Shown here in pieces: positions 11,245 to 63,455 of a stretch of 64,000 nucleotides of DNA. Origin of the DNA: Bacteroidota bacterium (GTDB lineage: Bacteria; Bacteroidota; Bacteroidia; 2-12-FULL-35-15). The notes below the pieces were generated by a model. It was not told the origin of the DNA, searched no databases, and saw only the letters and a program-made list of their open reading frames with translations. Positions within the stretch are counted from its first letter, which is position 1. Each line of letters starts with the position of its first letter. Location of the stretch: contig CANIFU010000007.1 of NCBI GenBank assembly GCA_947466965.1, positions 2,249 through 66,248 on the forward strand, in the 5' to 3' direction. A program made the position numbers and the translations under genes.

Positions 11245-13689
11245 ATGAAAAAACGTTACTCGATTTTACTACTTGTTTTATTTGTGTTTAATTACGCTGT
11301 TGTCAAGGCACAATCCTGTCAGCAAAAACATGATGCCGTTCATTTTTCAAAATCAGGTTCTCCTGATGTTGATCTCATGGCTTCCAATTTAAGAAGTGAT
11401 ACGGTTGATATTCTAAATTATTCGATCAATTTAAATATTACTGATTTTACTACGAATGTCATTAAAGGAAATACAAAGGTGAAATTTACGCCAAAGGTAA
11501 ATGGCCTTAATAAGATCGAACTCGATCTGTTGGAATTGATTCTCGATTCGGTTAAAATAGGTGCCGTGAGTCTAACCACTCTTTATAATGATACAACACT
11601 TATAGTGAATTTGCCAACTGTTTTGAATATTGGAGATACGTCAATAGCAACTGTTTATTACCACGGAACTCCTCAAGGTGATGCATCCGGATGGGGTGGC
11701 TTTTATTTTCAAAGTGGATACGCATTTAATTTAGGTGTTGGTTTTTCCGCTTTGCCACATGTATACGGAAGGGTTTGGTTCCCTTGTTTTGATAACTTTG
11801 TGGAACGCTCTTCTTATGAATTTAATATCACTACAAATGCAGGAAAGGTCGCTTATTGCAACGGATATTTAGCGCATGACACAACCGATCTTGCCGGTGA
11901 CCGCACTCGTAAATGGATTCTCAATGAAGAGATCCCTTCTTATCTTGCATGCGTTGCCGTTGCTAACTATGCTGAAATCAATCAAACATATAATGGAATT
12001 GCTGCTTCTATTCCAATCGTTATTGCGGCAGTCGCATCAGATACTACCGCAGTAAAAAATTCATTCATCAATCTTCCCGTTGCTTTGTCAACATACGAAA
12101 CTCATTTTGGACCTTATATGTGGAACAAAGTGGGATATAGTATGGTGCCTTTTAATTCCGGTGCTATGGAACACGCAACAAATATTGCTTATCCAAAAGC
12201 AACAGCAACGGGTTCTTTAACGTATCAAACATTGTATGCACATGAATTGTCGCACCATTGGTTTGGTGATCTTGCTACATGCAGAACTGCTGAAGATATG
12301 TGGTTAAACGAAGGTTGGGCAAAGTATTGTGAGTTTTTGTTTTCTGAAACCTTGAATGGATATCCGAATTATTTAACCAATGTTAGAGTCAATCATGAAG
12401 ACAATCTGCATTTTAATACACCTAAAGAAGGAATATTAACGCTTTCAAATATTCCTCAGGCATTCACCTATGGGGATCATGTTTATAATAAAGGTGCTGA
12501 TATTGCACATACAATGCGGGGTTATATGGGTGATAGTTTATTTTTTTATTCTGTGAAAACATATCTTTCAAATAATAATTATAAAGATGTTTCTAGTTTA
12601 GATTTTCAAAACGAACTCAGTGCTGCAAGTGGAATAGATATGACCGATTTTTTTAACGGATGGGTAAATAATCCAGGTTGGCCACATTTTTCAATTGATT
12701 CAAGTATAGTTATCCCTTCCGGTTCGAATTACAGTGTTACCGTTTTTGTAAAACAAAAACTTACAGATGCTCCAAATTATTTTAATAGTGTTCCTTTGGA
12801 ACTTACATTTAAATCCGCTAATTGGGTTGAAAATACACAGACTTTTATCATGTCAGGTGCAAATGCGTCCTTTAATTTTACTGTTCCTTTCAATCCATCA
12901 TTTATTGGTTTAAATATGGCTGAAAAAATTAGTCATGCTGTTGCACCCGAATTCAAAACAATTAAAACTACAGGAACTTCCAATTTCGCCAATGCAAAAA
13001 TGACCTTGAATGTTTTAAGTATTATAGATTCTGCTTTTGTGAAAATCGAACATAATTTCACCACTCCCGATCCGGCATACGCTATTCCTTATCGATTGTC
13101 ACCCAATCATTATTGGAAAGTAGATGGTATACTTCCTTCCATTTTTCGCTCGAAAGCAACTTTGAACTACGATGGTCGCACAACCGCTTTTTCTGGGAAT
13201 TATTGGTTGGATAATAACTTGGTTACAACATTTGAAGATAGTTTGGTGTTACTTTATCGAAGAGATGCGTCTGTAAATTGGAGCGTTTATCCTTTTTATA
13301 CTAAAAATATGCTTTCGAACAATAATGATAAACGTGGAATCATAACAATAGATTCGCTTCAGTTAGGGGAATATGTATTTGCAATGATGGACTATGCTTC
13401 TGGTATTCAACAGGTTGGTTTTGTTGATGATAAGCATACCTTGGCGCTTTATCCTAATCCTGCGAATGATAAACTCACAATTGATTTGTTAGCTTCAGGG
13501 ATTAAATCCTTTGATAATACCATCTGTATTATTACAGATGTATCTGGAAAGATTATATATAAAGAAAAAATAAAACATCAAAACACGATCAGTATAAATA
13601 CAGTTGGGTTTTCTAACGGTATGTATTTTGTTTCATTGAAAACGAACGACGAAATAACCGCAGAAACAAAATTCGTTATTGCTCATTAA
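11245..13689 (+). CDS. M1-family zinc aminopeptidase with T9SS C-terminal sorting domain
   Basis: Signal peptide. HELSHHWFGD...NEGWAKY is the HExxH-x18-E zinc site. C-terminus (LYPNPANDKLTIDL...YFVSLKTNDEITAETKFVI) matches the Por/T9SS CTD. Confidence 0.85.
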   Translation: MKKRYSILLLVLFVFNYAVVKAQSCQQKHDAVHFSKSGSPDVDLMASNLRSDTVDILNYSINLNITDFTTNVIKGNTKVKFTPKVNGLNKIELDLLELILDSVKIGAVSLTTLYNDTTLIVNLPTVLNIGDTSIATVYYHGTPQGDASGWGGFYFQSGYAFNLGVGFSALPHVYGRVWFPCFDNFVERSSYEFNITTNAGKVAYCNGYLAHDTTDLAGDRTRKWILNEEIPSYLACVAVANYAEINQTYNGIAASIPIVIAAVASDTTAVKNSFINLPVALSTYETHFGPYMWNKVGYSMVPFNSGAMEHATNIAYPKATATGSLTYQTLYAHELSHHWFGDLATCRTAEDMWLNEGWAKYCEFLFSETLNGYPNYLTNVRVNHEDNLHFNTPKEGILTLSNIPQAFTYGDHVYNKGADIAHTMRGYMGDSLFFYSVKTYLSNNNYKDVSSLDFQNELSAASGIDMTDFFNGWVNNPGWPHFSIDSSIVIPSGSNYSVTVFVKQKLTDAPNYFNSVPLELTFKSANWVENTQTFIMSGANASFNFTVPFNPSFIGLNMAEKISHAVAPEFKTIKTTGTSNFANAKMTLNVLSIIDSAFVKIEHNFTTPDPAYAIPYRLSPNHYWKVDGILPSIFRSKATLNYDGRTTAFSGNYWLDNNLVTTFEDSLVLLYRRDASVNWSVYPFYTKNMLSNNNDKRGIITIDSLQLGEYVFAMMDYASGIQQVGFVDDKHTLALYPNPANDKLTIDLLASGIKSFDNTICIITDVSGKIIYKEKIKHQNTISINTVGFSNGMYFVSLKTNDEITAETKFVIAH

Positions 13690-24849: not shown

Positions 24850-25032
24850 TTGCACTATTTTATATCAAACGTTTTTCGTTTTTTTTGTTTCCTAAAGGGT
24901 TGCCACTGTTCAATAAAATTATACAAAGCGGTTAAGTGTTTTGATGCTTTTATTTAATTGGAATGATTTTTGGCATTGTAAATTAGAACGTTAAAATTTA
25001 ATTTGTCAATGATTAAAATATCCCAAAGCAAT

Positions 25033-26229
25033 ATGAAAAAAATAGCCTTCCTTTTTTTATTATTCACGCTGTGTAATAATAAAGTTGCTTTTTCTCAGAA
25101 AATTGAAAAAGCCGATTCATTGGGACTCCCCGGTGATAATTTAAATTTATATGCAGTCCTGGATCTGTTTCAAAAATCTGAAACGTTTGAAGAATTCGAA
25201 AAACAAATTAATTTGGAAGACTCAAAGATCAATAACCTGGATTTAAATAATGATGATAAAACCGATTATATTAAAGTTGTAGACCATCAGACTGGTGAAT
25301 CACATGCTGTTGTTTTGCAAGTATTGGTGAATGAAAAAGAAACACAGGATGTTGCGGTCATTGAAATAGAAAAAGATAAAAACGGCAAAGTGCTTGTGCA
25401 GATTGTTGGAAATGAAGAATTATACGGCAAGGACTATATTGTTGAACCGACAGATAACGAACCGACTACGAAAGCTGCCGATCCGAATAAAAAATCGGAT
25501 ACAACCTCTGATGGAAAAACAGTAATCATCAACAATACAACTAATAATTACAATACAACAACGGCTCAAAATAATTCTCCCGATACATATGTAGTCGTGA
25601 ATCAATGGCCGATTATACATTATGTTTATACTCCATCTTATGTAATGTATGTTTCGCCTTGGCATTGGTATTTATATCCTTCTTGGTGGAGTCCTTGGTC
25701 ACCTTGGTATTGGCACAGTTACAATTGGCATCATTATAATTATTATAATCATCATGGACACTACCACCGAACAAATTATTACCGTGCTCCTAATGCGCAT
25801 AACTATTATGGTACAAGAAGATCTGTTTCTGTTACAGTGCAGCAAAACAGAATATCAAAAGTTTATCAACGGACATATACTTCGAAAAGTCGAAAGGGTG
25901 ATGGAAAAATAAATTCTGGAAAAGCAAATCCAGCATATAAAGAAAAGCAGAGAGAAAGTAAGTTAAATCCAGTAAATAATTCAAAAGATTCTCGCAACAA
26001 TAATGGAGATGGGATAAAAAATCAACCGAATGTAAATCCAAATCAAAGTCGTCCAGCTGCAAAGTATGATAATAAAGATAGGGGAAGCAAACCTGTTTTT
26101 CGTCCTCGTGATAATGCACGGCCAAGTCAAAAACAGAACCCTCAGCCAAGTCAGCGGCAAAACCCCAAGCCCTCAAATAAGCCGAGTCAAAGAGCACCGA
26201 AAGCAAATAAAAGTGGAGGCGGGCGTTAG
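25033..26229 (+). CDS. secreted low-complexity protein (Trp/Tyr/His-rich core, N/P/Q/K-rich tail); paralog of 59827..61137
   Basis: Signal peptide MKKIAFLFLLFTLCNNKVAFSQ. Has an INNTTNNYN motif, a W/Y/H-rich segment (SPWHWYLYPSWWSPWSPWYWHSYNWHHYNYYNHH), NPAYKEK, and a P/Q/N/K tail. Confidence 0.7.
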   Translation: MKKIAFLFLLFTLCNNKVAFSQKIEKADSLGLPGDNLNLYAVLDLFQKSETFEEFEKQINLEDSKINNLDLNNDDKTDYIKVVDHQTGESHAVVLQVLVNEKETQDVAVIEIEKDKNGKVLVQIVGNEELYGKDYIVEPTDNEPTTKAADPNKKSDTTSDGKTVIINNTTNNYNTTTAQNNSPDTYVVVNQWPIIHYVYTPSYVMYVSPWHWYLYPSWWSPWSPWYWHSYNWHHYNYYNHHGHYHRTNYYRAPNAHNYYGTRRSVSVTVQQNRISKVYQRTYTSKSRKGDGKINSGKANPAYKEKQRESKLNPVNNSKDSRNNNGDGIKNQPNVNPNQSRPAAKYDNKDRGSKPVFRPRDNARPSQKQNPQPSQRQNPKPSNKPSQRAPKANKSGGGR

Positions 26230-26318: not shown

Positions 26319-26960
26319 TTATTCTACGTACGTTGGAGTATTGCAACTTTCCTTAGCGCCAGCAAATTCATATTTTAATCCGATCCGTAGTTCAATGTTT
26401 TTATTTTTTACATGCAAATCTGGTGTAACGTATGCAGGAGCAATATCAGGATTATAAAATGCTTCAACCAAAAATTTAAAGTTTGAAAAACTGACGAACT
26501 CAATACCGCCTCCTAATCCAGCACTCATGTTTAACTTAGAAAAGTTACTGACGATTGTTGGTGATGTTGTACTTTGTGAAAGCATATAATCTAAACGTGG
26601 GCCAACTAATACGTAAGGGATAATACTATACATTTCGTAGCGGATTTTCAGATAGTTGTTCCATGAAATATACTGCAGTTTATTAGGGTAATTCTGGTCG
26701 AACTGCTTATCGATTGAACCCTTTTGATTGTATTGTAATTCGCTCACCCAGCGTGTATAATCATGACTGAAAAATTCAGCAAAGAAACTCGCATTAAAAC
26801 CAAACGTATATTTTTTTTGGGAGATGGCTGCCGGATCTTTAAAAAAGAATTTCTGATTTCCTGCGGAGACCCCGGCTGTTAAACCAATGCTATTTACAAA
26901 CTGCGCTTTGCATTGAAAGGCAATGGCTAAAATAAATGCAATTGAAATTAATTTTTTCAT
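26319..26960 (-). CDS. outer-membrane beta-barrel protein (small OmpA-like/PorT-like barrel)
   Basis: Signal peptide (AFQCKAQ). About 190 aa with alternating amphipathic strands and a terminal aromatic. Confidence 0.55.
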   Translation of the reverse strand: MKKLISIAFILAIAFQCKAQFVNSIGLTAGVSAGNQKFFFKDPAAISQKKYTFGFNASFFAEFFSHDYTRWVSELQYNQKGSIDKQFDQNYPNKLQYISWNNYLKIRYEMYSIIPYVLVGPRLDYMLSQSTTSPTIVSNFSKLNMSAGLGGGIEFVSFSNFKFLVEAFYNPDIAPAYVTPDLHVKNKNIELRIGLKYEFAGAKESCNTPTYVE

Positions 26961-58298: not shown

Positions 58299-59744
58299 TT
58301 AGAATCTTAATCCGAGTGATAACATAAAACTTGAATTCTTGTATTTGTTTTCTACCGCAGTTGCTTTCGGGGAATCATACAGATAATTATACTCGGTATA
58401 TTTTGTGAAGACGTATGCAAAGTCAATGAAGTACTTGTCCGCACGATACCCGATACCACCAGTATAACTTGTACGGTTAGCATTTTTGTTTTCATTGCTG
58501 CTAAACGGACTGCCATATAAAGCATATCCCAAGCGAATTGCAATTGGATCTAAACGGACTTCAGATCCAATACGGAGATTTCCTGTAGACGTATATTTTG
58601 ATAGGATAGTGCTGTTTACGTCGCTGAATACATTCGGACTCGAATGCAATTGAGCATAGGTATAGTCAACATATTCATACTCGACATTTAATAAGGCCAA
58701 TTTTTTTATGATAAAGCCAATGCTGCCGATGGCACGGAAAGGTGTTGTAATGGTGTAGGGCTCAAATAATCCTTGCGGAGAGATGGTGTCATACGTAATG
58801 CCGTTTTCCAGATCTGATTTCATTGAATTGTTGTAATCATCTCTCAACCTCAAAGAGGTTGGCGTATGGAAAGCGGCGCCAATTCTAACCCAGTCGTTCG
58901 GGCGGAAGATAGCGCCCAATTTTAGATTTACACCATTTCCTTTTGTAGTTAAATTTTGGGAAAAAGAAAACGATTTGAAGTCAGGGATTGTATCGGTTTC
59001 ATCAATTTCTTCATAGGTAGACTCTTCATGATATTTTGCTTTCACAAATCCGATGGTGCCACCTAAATACAATTTACTTTTATAATTTCCACCAAAGCTA
59101 ATTACCGTTTCACCCATTGCTCCAGTTGTCTCCACCACTTTTCTTTGTTTGATTCCATAGTGCTGTATCACATGGTTATAATTACCTAAAGTATCCGGAT
59201 TGATCAGATAGGTTTGATAAGCCAGATCGGTAGAAAACAGGTCGAAGCTGGAAGGGGGATTTCCATTTGCGTTTGCAACAAAAACATCCAACAGTGAACT
59301 CGTTTTATTGTCAGCCTGGATATCCATTCTGTTGTGGAAATTATTTGTTCGGTTGTAACCGAATCCGAAATTAATATTTTCCCAACCTGTTGTATTTGAT
59401 TCTTTAATGAGGTTGATACTTGCTACCAATCCGATGTTTCCTAAATTAAAATTAAGTTTACTATCGCTCGATGTATTTGAGTTGTATGTGGAAGAAGTGG
59501 TTTGTGAAAAAATAGAAGGAGTGATAGAGATCTCCGTTTTTTTGAATATTGCTAGGCCAGCCGGATTAAAGCTAAGCGTTGATATGTCGCCACCAAGAGC
59601 TCCCATTGAGCCCGCCATAGAAGCGAAACGGGCAGTTCCTCCAAATGTAATCTGTGAGTAACGCATTGCGTCAATATCATTTTGTGCTTGTAAATGCCAT
59701 GCACATAACAAGGCCATGCCGGTGATCAGAATTTGTTTTTTCAT
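58299..59744 (-). CDS. outer-membrane beta-barrel protein, FadL/OmpP1/PorV-like
   Basis: Signal peptide (MKKQILITGMALLCAWHLQAQ). N-terminal FNPAGLA hatch-like motif, a long beta-rich body and a C-terminal ...LGLRF. Confidence 0.55.
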   Translation of the reverse strand: MKKQILITGMALLCAWHLQAQNDIDAMRYSQITFGGTARFASMAGSMGALGGDISTLSFNPAGLAIFKKTEISITPSIFSQTTSSTYNSNTSSDSKLNFNLGNIGLVASINLIKESNTTGWENINFGFGYNRTNNFHNRMDIQADNKTSSLLDVFVANANGNPPSSFDLFSTDLAYQTYLINPDTLGNYNHVIQHYGIKQRKVVETTGAMGETVISFGGNYKSKLYLGGTIGFVKAKYHEESTYEEIDETDTIPDFKSFSFSQNLTTKGNGVNLKLGAIFRPNDWVRIGAAFHTPTSLRLRDDYNNSMKSDLENGITYDTISPQGLFEPYTITTPFRAIGSIGFIIKKLALLNVEYEYVDYTYAQLHSSPNVFSDVNSTILSKYTSTGNLRIGSEVRLDPIAIRLGYALYGSPFSSNENKNANRTSYTGGIGYRADKYFIDFAYVFTKYTEYNYLYDSPKATAVENKYKNSSFMLSLGLRF

Positions 59745-59826: not shown

Positions 59827-61137
59827 TTACCTTCTTGGAGGTTTTGAACTTGCCGGTGTATTGTTGGGGGTTCCTCTGCTGGGGCTAGAAGAATTATTTC
59901 TTGGAGCATCATTTTGAGGCCTTTCGAATTTAGGTTGTTCAACCGGTTTTTGTCTGTCGTTATGATATACCGGATTTTCCTTGATCACCGGATTCTCCTT
60001 GTATACCGGTCTGTCGTTGTAAACGGGTTTCTCTTTATAAACCGGATTCTCTTTATAAACCGGATTTTCTTTATTAGCAGGCGTCTCTCTATAAGTTGGT
60101 TTTTCCTTATAAGCAGGATTGTCTGTTGATACAGGTCTGTTGTTATCTGGTTTGTAAGCAGGATTAACCGGGCCGGCAGGTTTTGAGTTGTCATTTCTGT
60201 TATCCGCAGGTTTATAAACAGATGCAGCAGAAGAGCTGGTATATACTGGTTTGATGCGTCCGTAATCATCTTTCGTCCAGTTTTCCGGATTGGCTTTTGC
60301 TTGTGTTTCAATCTCGGTCATCATGTGGCTTGCAAGAGAGGGTTGAGCAGTTACTCTGCCGTTTGAACCTGTCGTTCCGCGTGGTCCGTAGTAATAACTG
60401 TTATTGTCATAGCTATTGAAATAATTGTTGTTGTTTAAGCCACTGTAATATCCGTCCCAATATCCATTGTTGTAACCATTCATGTATGGATTATATCCGT
60501 ATCCGTAATTTCCATAGGGGTTGTATCCATAACTATATCCATAAGGGTTGTAACCGTATCCGTATGGATTATACCAAGGGTCGTATCCCCAACCCTGATT
60601 GCCATACCAGTAATAACTTGGGTTGTATGAATAGGTACTGTAACTTGGCCCCCAGAAATTGTAGCCCATGTAAACGCTTGTTCCGTAATTGTAGGGATCA
60701 CCTGTATACCAATAGGAGTTGGTATAATAGTTATCGTAGTAACCATAACTGCCACAGTTGTTGTGAAAACGTCTTAATCGGACAGAATAAGCGTCATCAT
60801 AATAATCGTCGTAGTTGAATGGTGTATTGTCGTTGTAATTATTGGTTGTGTTGTTAATGGTGGTTGTTCCATTATCTGATGGAGTGTAGTAGTCATCAGC
60901 TGGAGCGTCGCTGCTGCGTTTTGTATTCTGTGCAGCCAGTGCCGCCTCGTCCGCCTGCTTTTTTGCCTCTTCTTTTGCAAGGGCATCTTCTAGTTTACGT
61001 TTTTCCTTATCCGCTGCTTTGTCTTTTGATGAATAATAAATATCATCGCTATAAGTTTTTGATTGAGCTCCCTCCGGTGCTTTGCAGGCAGTAAACGCTA
61101 ATAAAAAGAAAGTCAGAATACTTAGAAAGGTTTTCAT
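59827..61137 (-). CDS. low-complexity lipoprotein (Tyr/Gly/Asn-rich core, hexapeptide xPVYKE repeat tail); paralog of 25033..26229
   Basis: Lipobox LLAFTACKA. Shares INNTTNNYN and NPAYKEK motifs with the 25033 gene. Has YGYNPYGY-type aromatic repeats and a C-terminal array of at least 7 NPVYKE-like hexapeptides. Confidence 0.7.
   Translation of the reverse strand: MKTFLSILTFFLLAFTACKAPEGAQSKTYSDDIYYSSKDKAADKEKRKLEDALAKEEAKKQADEAALAAQNTKRSSDAPADDYYTPSDNGTTTINNTTNNYNDNTPFNYDDYYDDAYSVRLRRFHNNCGSYGYYDNYYTNSYWYTGDPYNYGTSVYMGYNFWGPSYSTYSYNPSYYWYGNQGWGYDPWYNPYGYGYNPYGYSYGYNPYGNYGYGYNPYMNGYNNGYWDGYYSGLNNNNYFNSYDNNSYYYGPRGTTGSNGRVTAQPSLASHMMTEIETQAKANPENWTKDDYGRIKPVYTSSSAASVYKPADNRNDNSKPAGPVNPAYKPDNNRPVSTDNPAYKEKPTYRETPANKENPVYKENPVYKEKPVYNDRPVYKENPVIKENPVYHNDRQKPVEQPKFERPQNDAPRNNSSSPSRGTPNNTPASSKPPRR
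59970..60113. repeat. tandem 18-bp repeat array (CCGGATTCTCTTTATAAA-like units), coding for hexapeptide repeats on the minus strand
   Basis: Units at 59970, 59988, 60006, 60024, 60042 and 60060; neighbouring copies 60024..60041 and 60042..60059 differ at 4 of 18 positions. Confidence 0.85.
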
Positions 61138-61268: not shown

Positions 61269-62741
61269 ATGAGCAAGGAGTTATCAACGAGAGAAGGAAA
61301 TTATTCTGAATGGTACAACGAATTAGTTGTCAAAGCAGATTTAGCAGAACATTCTGCTGTAAAAGGCTGCATGGTCATTAAGCCTTATGGCTATGCTATT
61401 TGGGAAAAGATGCAGCAGGCATTGGATAAAATGTTCAAAGATACAGACCATGTCAACGCGTATTTCCCCTTGTTCATACCCAAATCTTTTTTTAGCAAAG
61501 AAGCGAGTCATGTTGATGGATTTGCAAAAGAATGTGCCGTTGTGACACATTACCGTTTGAAAACGGCTCCTGATGGAAGTGTTGTGGTAGATGAAACAGC
61601 AAAGTTAGATGAAGAATTAATTGTTCGTCCGACCTCCGAAACCATCATCTGGAATACATACCGAGGCTGGATTCAATCGTACCGCGATTTACCTATATTG
61701 GTAAATCAATGGGCGAATGTGGTACGTTGGGAGATGCGGACACGTTTATTTTTGAGAACAACAGAATTTCTGTGGCAGGAAGGACATACCGCACATGCAA
61801 CATCAGCGGAAGCAGTAATTGAAACAGAAAAAATGCTGGGGATCTATGCAGAATTTGCAGAAAAGTGGATGGCGATGCCGGTGATAAAAGGAATTAAGAC
61901 AGCAAACGAACGCTTCGCAGGTGCGGTTGAAACCTATTGTATTGAGGCATTGATGCAAGATGGGAAAGCGTTGCAGGCAGGAACATCTCATTTCTTGGGA
62001 CAAAATTTCGCGAAAGCATTTGATGTAAAATTTGCAACAAAAGAAGGAACGCAGGAACACGTTTGGGCAACATCATGGGGGGTTTCAACCCGTTTAATGG
62101 GAGCTTTAGTGATGTCGCATTCGGATGACAAAGGTTTGGTTTTGCCTCCTAAATTAGCGCCATTTCAAGTAGTAATTGTTCCGATTTATAAAGGAGAAGA
62201 GCAATTGGCACAGATAAATGAAGTGGTTGCAAAGATGAAAAAAGCAATGGAAGCCAAAGGGATTACTGTGAAATACGATAACAGAGATACACAGCGTCCA
62301 GGTTGGAAATTTGCGGAATATGAATTAAAAGGAGTGCCTGTTCGAATAGCAATCGGAGGACGGGATCTGGAGAACGGAACCGTTGAGGTGGCGAGGAGGG
62401 ATACAATGGAAAAGGAAACGCTGCAGCAAGCCGACATTGAAAACAAGATCGAACATTTGTTGGAGCAAATTCAAGAAAATCTGTACCAGAAAGCAAAAGC
62501 AATGAATGATGCTAAAACTTATTCAGCCGATACGTACGAAGAATTTAAAAAGATTCTGGAAGAAACACCCGGTTTTATTATGGCACATTGGGACGGAACA
62601 CCGGAGAGCGAGCAAAAGATAAAAGAAGAGACCAAAGCGACCATCCGTTGCATCCCAATAGGTAATAAGCAGGAGCAGGGCTTGTGTATTTATAGTGGGA
62701 AGCCATCCACACAGCGGGTGGTATTTGCAAGGGCATATTAA
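61269..62741 (+). CDS. proS: proline--tRNA ligase (archaeal/eukaryotic-type class II ProRS)
   Basis: [27 protein letters not shown]... characteristic N-terminus, class II motifs and a C-terminal zinc-binding tail (CIPIG...C). The listed 61164 start is an AT-rich extension. Confidence 0.9.
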
Positions 62742-62762: not shown

Positions 62763-63455
62763 ATGGAAAAGAAAACACCAAGAGAATTGATCTTAAAAGC
62801 GCTTGTCGAGAAGTCGAGCATGAAGCAGGATGTGTATGCGAATACATTGAGTTCCTTTAATACCTTGAAAGCGGTCGCAAAGGAAGTATTGGCTGAGATG
62901 TCAAAGGACATTGCGACAAAAGATAAACGGGTGATCATTGAGTACCGCGAAAAAGGTGAATTTGAGTTCGAGATCAGAATTGCTGGCGATCTATTGATCT
63001 TCTCGATGCATACAAATATTTTTGAATTTGACAGGAGCCATCCGATCTGGAAGAGTTCGTATATAAAAGAAGATCATTTTCGGACTTTCTGCGGGATGAT
63101 CAACATCTATAATTTTCTGAACGATTCATTCAAATATAACAGAATAAATGATTTAGGTTATGTGATTGGGCGAATCTTTGTAAATAAAGAAAACCATTAT
63201 TTTGTGGAAGGAAAAAGACAGTTGGGTTTCTTGTATAACGACTTTGTGCATGCTGTTATAGATGAGCATGCGATCAAGGCAATTTTGGAATCAACGATAC
63301 TGTATTGCTTAAATTTCGACCTGTATACCCCGCCATTTGACGCCATTAAGGAAATTAGTGTGATGGATATGCAGTCGGTTAGTGAAAGTATGCAGATAAA
63401 AACAGGAAAACGCTTAGGCTTTCGTTTTCAAGCAGATAGTGATTCAATTGATTGA
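62763..63455 (+). CDS. hypothetical cytoplasmic protein
   Basis: 230-aa ORF with no signal peptide and no recognisable motif. Lies between proS and tRNA-Glu. Confidence 0.5.
   Translation: MEKKTPRELILKALVEKSSMKQDVYANTLSSFNTLKAVAKEVLAEMSKDIATKDKRVIIEYREKGEFEFEIRIAGDLLIFSMHTNIFEFDRSHPIWKSSYIKEDHFRTFCGMINIYNFLNDSFKYNRINDLGYVIGRIFVNKENHYFVEGKRQLGFLYNDFVHAVIDEHAIKAILESTILYCLNFDLYTPPFDAIKEISVMDMQSVSESMQIKTGKRLGFRFQADSDSID

Follow-up and report, generated by a model that had tools for sequence, protein, structure and literature searches.

The window analyzed here is a 64,000-nucleotide stretch of DNA from a Bacteroidota bacterium (GenBank GCA_947466965.1, contig CANIFU010000007.1, positions 2,249 to 66,248). 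Two of its genes, separated by approximately 34 kb and lying on opposite strands, encode the proteins referred to here as A and B (Table 1), which were originally predicted to be a paralogous pair of secreted, aromatic-rich, low-complexity proteins that could not be assigned to a family of known function. Both open reading frames (ORFs) are present and both products are exported: A has a signal peptidase I (SPI) signal followed by a near-invariant Gln, and B has a lipobox with an invariant Cys. The absence of a known family also held, with no match to either protein in Pfam, NCBIfam, or the PDB. At the level of sequence, A and B contain a colinear series of short conserved elements on a background of similar composition, and it is rather probable that these elements belong to a distantly homologous C-terminal module that is fused to different N-terminal parts in the two proteins.

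Searches with protein A produced 4231 homologs (E ≤ 1e-3, the threshold used for both families) from Bacteroidia metagenome-assembled genomes (MAGs) and Flavobacterium; every one is labeled hypothetical, and together they form more than 4,000 clusters at 90% identity. No meaningful Pfam or NCBIfam match was obtained for A or 33 of its relatives, and a profile of the A family found nothing in the PDB. Sequence patterns were counted in 120 relatives per family, with an additional wider set of 121 representatives for B, and alignments were made from 33 relatives of A and 38 of B (the latter is alignment A2, and alignment A3 is that of the outer-membrane barrel encoded next to B). The A ORF starts with the ATG of MKKIAFLF; a longer TTG start at 25003 is unused by most homologs. 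SPI substrates in the Bacteroidetes expose Gln at the cleavage site, a pattern known as the Q-rule (PMC5837995), and protein A has the features of such a substrate: Q22 is conserved at a level of at least 90%, and an xxQ cleavage site was found in 107 of 120 relatives. The mature protein begins with a very strongly conserved acidic head (net charge −14, isoelectric point [pI] 4.3), which AlphaFold2 (AF2) modeled as three helices and a four-stranded sheet with a predicted local distance difference test score (pLDDT) of 70–90. A DxNxDxxxDY loop in the head looks like a calcium site of the DxDxDG type and is a putative site of this kind. The linker that follows carries (S/A)DGKTxVINNTTNNYY across the family and leads to the aromatic block, in which W192, P201, S208, P209, W212, Y215, P216, W219, and W222 are invariant; the Trp and Pro positions are held even though the relatives are only approximately 40% identical overall. 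In the YYGxRRS block, Y259 is invariant and R251 and S266 nearly so. The tail carries a net charge of approximately +16 across the family, contains NP[AG] in 116/120 relatives, and closes with GGGGKGR-like ends (Arg or Lys as last residue in 98/120, GG among the final 12 residues in 91/120). Outside the head and the helices at aa 253–282, AF2 confidence was low, and this includes the aromatic block.

Protein B represents a second family, with 1639 clusters at 50% identity, of which 381 were recovered in a stricter set (E ≤ 1e-30), and it is found in at least 441 species-level genomes. Again, B and 38 relatives produced no meaningful Pfam or NCBIfam match, and the B profile found no relevant PDB chain. 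A lipobox pattern was detected in 92/120 relatives and 95/121 of the wider set, as expected for lipoproteins processed by the Sec and signal peptidase II (SPII) pathway. The lipobox Cys, invariant in the alignment, is followed by DDxYYSSKD, the long Lys/Glu/Ala helix, and, in part of the family, the motif shared with A: [TSN]NNY[YN] was counted in 54–67 of 120 relatives and in 66/121 of the wider representatives, and TxxINNTTNNYY in roughly half. The adjoining Tyr-rich core reads FNYDDYYDDAYxxRLRRFHNN..YGYYDNYYTNSYWYxGxPYNYGxSxYMGYNFWGPSY over aa 106–175 and DDYYDYEYAxRLRRFHNN..YGYYDNYYTNSYWY..SVYMGYNFWGPSY in its family form, with DDYYD and R[LIV]xRF each present in 111/120 relatives. The tail varies widely in length and repeat type, and in some relatives KENPVY is replaced by repeats of the P[IV][RK] type; it has a net charge of +5.9 across the family and ends in GGGHRPR or KPPRR (last residue Arg or Lys in 110/120 and 104/121). 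AF2 was confident for B only in the helix at aa 37–77 and the helix-hairpin at aa 268–297. Trp/Tyr-rich middle segments are present in both proteins, as predicted, but the description of them as low complexity alone needed correction, since the Trp and Pro positions of A are invariant and residues 106–175 of B are strongly conserved. The predicted basic, Pro-rich tails are likewise found on both. All AF2 models were built from shallow multiple sequence alignments (33–38 sequences), so that the low confidence for the conserved aromatic blocks is no proof of disorder.

Two words are shared exactly by A and B and occur in the same order: INNTTNNYN at A166–174 and B94–102, and NPAYKEK at A299–305 and B340–346. 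When the proteins were shuffled 2000 times globally and 2000 times locally (30-aa window), the longest common word never reached nine residues (0/2000 in each case), and it reached seven in only two and five shuffles, respectively, so the match is beyond chance. The motif is found in no other six-frame ORF of the window. A and B also differ from the other ORFs in composition: the 40-aa stretch richest in Trp, Tyr, Gly, and Asn contains 22/40 of these residues in A and 34/40 in B, compared with no more than 17/40 in the others (46 large ORFs in all), and the aromatic segments quoted in the original prediction, SPWHWYLYPSWWSPWSPWYWHSYNWHHYNYYNHHGHYH in A and YGYNPYGYSYGYNPYGNYGYGY in B, are both present. 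The coding DNA of the shared words is identical at 23/27 and 17/21 bases, with the differences at synonymous sites; the match has therefore been kept at the protein level, and a recent gene conversion between A and B was rejected for the same reason.

The similarity around the first word extends further than nine residues, as seen when SDGKTVIINNTTNNYN of A is compared with SDGKTAVNNTTNNYY and SDGRTTINNTTNNYY from relatives of B, and a near-identity of 13–14 residues, SDGKT..NNTTNNY, spans both families. The regions behind the N-terminal parts were then compared against nulls that preserve local composition (local shuffles; column shuffles for the hhalign comparisons). A B-family hidden Markov model (HMM) of the TNNYY block scored the A family with a median z of 3.35, and 75 of 120 A sequences beat all 50 of their local shuffles. 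For the whole module, hhalign produced scores of 193.3 without composition correction (null, 139 ± 12) and 47.1 with default settings (null, 21.5 ± 5.2), neither of which was reached by any of 100 shuffles (z approximately 4.4–4.9). After removal of the TNNYY block the default score was 44.2 against a null of 21.8 ± 4.1 (z = 5.5), and hhalign paired t..yR.p.ah.yYg.RRS.S with nnYfNSYDnNSyyYGPR.s.g at a probability of 81% and E = 1.2e-5. Most members of both families also end in a basic residue, usually after a run of Gly. The observation is thus somewhat stronger than originally stated, because the motif common to A and B extends over more residues and there is significant alignment of a second block. 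Two apparent matches were set aside: an hhalign E value of 1e-25 obtained without composition correction is an artifact, and the regular expression Y.Y.P.Y...WGY.P, which matches both families and none of the shuffles, was not used as evidence because it was written after both had been seen.

Several results weigh against common ancestry. The best BLASTP comparison of A and B gave E = 0.04, and hhalign of the full-length alignments aligned only the signal peptides. An HMM of the A module detected zero B sequences after bias correction, and the reciprocal search of A with the B module gave 20–23 bits with a bias of 40–77 bits, which is null or marginal. The aromatic blocks were barely above their shuffles (z = 0.5–0.8 with block HMMs), so the module may be no more than a pair of short motifs that converged against a similar compositional background; the NPAYK regions were similarly close to the null (z = 0.5–1.0). 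The N-terminal thirds are unrelated, an acidic globular domain in A versus a lipid anchor and long helix in B, and the two genes lie in entirely different contexts. Finally, the TNNYY motif is missing from part of the B family: one subclade (e.g., P0164, P0166, and P0201) has ANPYYKDREF in place of TxxINNTTNNYY, together with another tail repeat, so that not all members of this family have the shared motif. These results would be expected if A and B were unrelated proteins that share a low-complexity composition and two short motifs, of separate origin or passed on in a small ancient transfer. In that case, B would be an accessory lipoprotein of a FadL-type channel for hydrophobic compounds, and A would have a separate function through its N-terminal domain. 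We consider this possible but not likely. It does not sit easily with the five features that occur colinearly in the two families: the candidate module would run from SDGKTxxINNTTNNYY through an aromatic/proline block, YYGxR with a short helix, and NP[AG]YK to a Pro-rich polycationic tail ending in GGGxR(R). Two blocks and the whole module are also significant against local-composition nulls, and the long near-identity and a position-specific basic C terminus are common to both families. Compositional chance, raised with the original prediction as a way in which the matches could arise, hence fits some parts better than others: the TNNYY and YYGxR blocks exceed local composition, and the aromatic and NPAYK regions barely do so. 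The proposed paralogy thus finds partial support: these two blocks and the module order speak for it, and BLASTP, full-length hhalign, HMMER, and the unrelated N-terminal thirds speak against it.

The two proteins were originally proposed to be extracellular. No C-terminal domain for type IX secretion (T9SS; Por_Secre_tail or related) was matched in A, B, or 71 relatives. An M1 peptidase encoded in the same window (11245..13689, plus strand) served as a positive control and matched PF18962 with E = 1.2e-13; its domain shows both that T9SS is used by the organism and that such domains can be detected by the model. Surface export of lipoproteins was assessed by the presence of at least two acidic residues immediately C-terminal to the lipidated Cys (PMC12578637). 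Acidic residues at positions +2 to +6 numbered none in 85, one in 6, and two in 1 of 92 relatives of B, and 0 of the 95 lipobox-containing relatives in the wider set had two or more. With neither a T9SS domain nor a lipoprotein export signal, a periplasmic location is better supported than an extracellular one: A is probably periplasmic, and B probably sits at the inner leaflet of the outer membrane. As a point against this, the location is argued from missing signals, and an export route, perhaps via the FadL-type barrel, is conceivable.

The gene contexts of the two families were compared over the best 80 loci for B, all of which come from uncultured Bacteroidota MAGs, and over four distant loci for A. 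Gene B has a divergently oriented proS upstream of it in 76/80 loci and is directly followed, in the same orientation, by a gene for a FadL-type barrel in 76/80; among the loci with sufficient flanking sequence, a single one is without proS. No terminator-like site was found between B and the barrel gene, and the two are probably co-transcribed. The barrel scored 42.3 bits against PF03349 (gathering cutoff, 29.7), which places it in the FadL/Toluene_X family; its homologs are named OmpP1/FadL family transporter at their source, with PF03349 precomputed for nearly all. It is much better conserved than B (62%–93% versus 30%–67% identity) and has an invariant N-terminal segment, QNDIDAMRYSQ..FGGTARF..NPAG. 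The barrel profile matched no solved structure in the PDB at E ≤ 10, and single-sequence searches were also empty; the barrel therefore appears to be a deep, unstudied branch of FadL. Assignment to PorV/PorQ was rejected (NF033709, 26.3 bits against a cutoff of 90). Directly downstream of proS is a gene for a 230-aa protein without a Pfam match (62763..63455, plus strand), the product of which has a tblastn match at the same position, with 73%–99% identity, in 11 of the 12 loci listed out of 80. Several freshwater MAGs with this locus (L014, L029, L063, L077, and L087) are titled Chitinophaga pinensis although they are uncultured and widely divergent, which is probably a label artifact.

The neighbors of gene A differ in all four distant loci, and the same neighbors were found only in near-identical contigs. 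In the window they are hutU, an outer-membrane protein (OMP) gene, and fabD. The OMP gene converges on A and shares with it a terminator hairpin with A- and T-tracts on its flanks, which was missed by a simple terminator scan and confirmed by folding. The hairpin after A and the lack of conserved neighbors together point to a monocistronic gene. In the cultured Flavobacterium sp. ALJ2 (GCA_015594725.1; locus L010, 6001..9881), the A homolog (IUY40_02435) has, downstream of it and in the same orientation, genes for a Porin_O_P (phosphate-selective) porin and a symporter of the Na+/sulfate type, an order that was not seen in other A loci. Three MAGs (JNL69, V4608, and WAQ28) each contribute locus tags for A together with B, or for A together with a FadL-like barrel, and one A relative and one B relative are each on a 286,647-bp contig.

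Table 1. Features of the A and B loci, with positions in the window
Feature	Positions	Strand	Remarks
Gene A, 398-aa exported protein	25033..26229	+	ORF; large undescribed Bacteroidota family
A signal peptide, aa 1–21, cleavage exposes Gln22	25033..25095	+	Conserved across family
A N-terminal acidic globular domain, aa 22–140, pI 4.3	25096..25452	+	Approximately 45 invariant columns
A DxNxDxxxDY loop, aa 70–79	25240..25269	+	In 120/120 relatives
A shared motif SDGKTVIINNTTNNYN, aa 159–174	25507..25554	+	Exact 9-mer also in B
A Trp/Tyr/His/Pro block (WPxxxYxYxPxYVxYxSPWxWxxYPxWWxPWxPWYWH...), aa 191–246	25603..25770	+	49% aromatic residues
A YYGxRRS block and predicted short helices, aa 247–283	25771..25881	+	pLDDT 69–83
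A polycationic Pro/Asn/Lys/Gln tail, aa 284–398, net +20, pI 11.1, end ...KSGGGR	25882..26226	+	Composition
NPAYKEK within A tail	25927..25947	+	Exact word also in B
Bidirectional terminator hairpin between A and convergent OMP gene	26254..26291		Fold −23.1 kcal/mol, z = −8.0
Small OMP_b-brl_2 outer-membrane protein, convergent with A, shares hairpin	26319..26960	-	Side observation
FadL/Toluene_X-family outer-membrane barrel, downstream of B, same strand	58299..59744	-	PF03349
Gene B, 436-aa lipoprotein	59827..61137	-	ORF; second undescribed Bacteroidota family
B signal peptide and lipobox LAFTAC, aa 1–18	61084..61137	-	C18 invariant in 38 relatives
B long Lys/Glu/Ala helix, aa 37–77	60907..61029	-	AF2 pLDDT approximately 90
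B shared motif SDNGTTTINNTTNNYN, aa 87–102	60832..60879	-	Exact 9-mer also in A
B conserved Tyr-rich core, aa 106–175	60613..60822	-	Invariant columns D111 to W162
B Tyr/Gly/Asn/Pro low-complexity stretch, aa 176–236	60430..60612	-	Length-variable in alignment
B NNYFNSYDNNSYYYGPR block, aa 237–257	60367..60429	-	Invariant Y239, N241, Y250, G251, R253
B predicted helix and hairpin, aa 268–297	60247..60336	-	AF2 pLDDT approximately 86
B Pro-rich basic tail, aa 301–436, net +8, end ...SKPPRR	59830..60237	-	Composition
NPAYKEK within B tail	60100..60120	-	Exact word also in A
18-nt tandem repeat (5.4 copies, approximately 80% matches) encoding KENPVY hexapeptides, B tail	59969..60066	-	Repeat
proS (prolyl-tRNA synthetase), divergent from B	61269..62741	+	Pfam domains in L001, L003, L004

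We tentatively propose that the module serves for tethering or scaffolding of the envelope under the outer membrane in two separate undescribed families, a function that is possible on the predicted binding properties. Segments rich in Trp, Tyr, and Pro locate to membrane interfaces or form stacking contacts with sugars, and polycationic Pro-rich tails bind anionic polymers; a tethering or scaffolding role is favored because of these general properties. Protein A is bipolar, with its acidic head, aromatic block, and strongly basic tail, and B has an acidic Tyr-rich region and a less highly charged basic tail. Neither protein would leave the periplasm, where B would sit at the outer membrane's inner face. 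In A, the module would be carried by the acidic head with its Ca-loop-like motif, exported by Sec and SPI from a stand-alone gene; in B, it would be carried by a lipid anchor and long helix, encoded upstream of the FadL-type barrel together with which B would work. The aromatic block would be sticky and seek out the membrane interface or a glycan, the cationic tail would be an electrostatic tether to anionic peptidoglycan, phospholipid, or lipopolysaccharide head groups, and the shared polar motif would dock a common partner or A to B. Against this proposal, AF2 confidence is low for the aromatic blocks and tails, and the binding targets, the location, and the contacts between A and B and between B and its barrel are all predicted. 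In a further variant, which we think has little chance of being correct, A and B would define a class of periplasmic proteins specific to the Bacteroidota, and the module would self-associate through its polar-zipper-like motif and aromatic–cation contacts (Trp/Tyr block and Arg/Lys/Gly tail) to produce a periplasmic gel-like or cross-beta scaffold, nucleated at a complex of lipoprotein B and the FadL-type barrel. If true, this would be a new way of organizing or tethering the envelope in a phylum that is not known to have Braun's lipoprotein.

An adhesive, amyloid-like, or phase-separating role was suggested in the original prediction, in which A and B would be surface or extracellular matrix proteins that self-assemble via NNTTNNY and the Tyr/Trp region. 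The heptad presumably resembles the GNNQQNY zipper peptide of Sup35, and Tyr-rich segments with tails of the RGG (Arg-Gly-Gly) type drive cation–pi condensation in FUS-like proteins; B contains 14% Tyr, with Trp, Tyr, Gly, or Asn at 34/40 positions of its richest stretch, and both an aromatic block and an Arg/Lys/Gly tail are present. The curli protein CsgA, Fap, and prion-like or RGG proteins are similar in these respects, being rich in Asn, Tyr, and Gly, with a zipper-like polar heptad and aromatic and Arg/Gly segments. A and B differ from curli and Fap in that Curlin repeats are absent and neither gene has CsgG/E/F, Fap export genes, or any other genes for curli or amyloid export beside it. 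No Curlin or other amyloid Pfam match was found in A, B, or their relatives, the T9SS domain and lipoprotein export signal are absent, and the aromatic residues are conserved at individual positions, which sets them apart from a sticker defined by composition alone. A role in a surface matrix is consequently unlikely.

It is similarly improbable that A, and perhaps B, is a periplasmic protein that binds or buffers metal via the His/Tyr/Trp block and the acidic head with its Ca-like loop. The His-rich block is conserved in the A family (mean of 8.2 His per 60 aa; 10 His in aa 191–262 of the window protein), DxNxDxxxDY is invariant, and one relative of B carries the Joint Genome Institute (JGI) label "Ni/Co efflux regulator RcnB." That label was rejected for the B family, as there was no Pfam RcnB match in 38 relatives at E ≤ 0.01, and no other metal-binding match was found in these or in the 33 relatives of A. 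B is nearly devoid of His (0.9% across the family), and no metal transporter is consistently adjacent.

The closest known arrangement to the B locus is in the Bacteroidota β-barrel assembly machinery (BAM), in which a FadL-family protein, BamG, holds the lipoprotein BamH; a paralogous pair of the same type, Bt1785/Bt1786, has consecutive locus numbers, and the structures were determined by cryo-electron microscopy (PMC12611786, PMC12578637). Like the B locus, BamG/BamH combines a FadL/Toluene_X-type barrel with a dedicated lipoprotein in a member of the Bacteroidota. In addition, BamA contains a loop, EL3, that is disordered and rich in Tyr, Gly, and Asn (PMC12578637), and this loop was the only result of a literature search on Tyr-rich lipoproteins of the Bacteroidota; it is likened to B by composition, not alignment. 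By analogy, B and its barrel, with A as a soluble relative, might function in the biogenesis of outer-membrane proteins or lipoproteins, the Tyr/Gly/Asn region of B playing the same role as EL3, and the conservation of the B–barrel pair beside a housekeeping gene is consistent with this. However, BamH is folded with a carbohydrate-binding module (CBM)-like fold, surface exposed, and glycosylated, whereas B appears mostly disordered, is Tyr-rich, and has no export signal, and EL3 is a 38-residue barrel loop on the outer face, whereas B is a lipoprotein in its own right with a probable orientation toward the periplasm. Identity with BamG/BamH was rejected because the profiles of B (E ≤ 1) and of the barrel (E ≤ 10) found no relevant chain in a copy of the PDB in which the presence of the BAM chains was unchecked. 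With this evidence, a biogenesis role is very unlikely.

The remaining comparisons each account for only part of the architecture. E. coli FadL and TodX (PF03349) resemble the barrel and neither A nor B; the barrel retains the invariant NPAG, in which NPA is the FadL hatch motif, but it is too divergent to match any solved FadL homolog. We know of no partner lipoprotein for classical FadL. TonB spacers and Lpp or Alanine_zipper proteins (PF11839) resemble B in their lipid anchor, long helix, Pro-rich segment (KENPVY ×5 in B), and basic C terminus. Lpp uses a C-terminal Lys for covalent attachment. In contrast, the C-terminal residue in the B family is mostly Arg, there is no TonB C-terminal domain, and PF11839 was not matched by the window protein and only weakly by 1 of 38 relatives; membership of the Lpp group was therefore rejected. 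Matches to TrsH, Mucin, Extensin, and PARP were far below their cutoffs or compositional and were discarded.

Recent work has identified FadL-like barrels and Tyr/Gly/Asn-rich loops as unexpected parts of outer-membrane biogenesis in the Bacteroidota. The shared module, if it does act as an envelope tether or assembly element, would add a structural component that has been missing from accounts of the Bacteroidota envelope. What is new here is at the level of the families and the module: two widely conserved, undescribed families with an unusual shared module. The conserved 16-residue motif offers a precise handle for mutagenesis, and both families, large and conserved in uncultured and cultured Bacteroidota, merit domain definition regardless of the function that the module may have.

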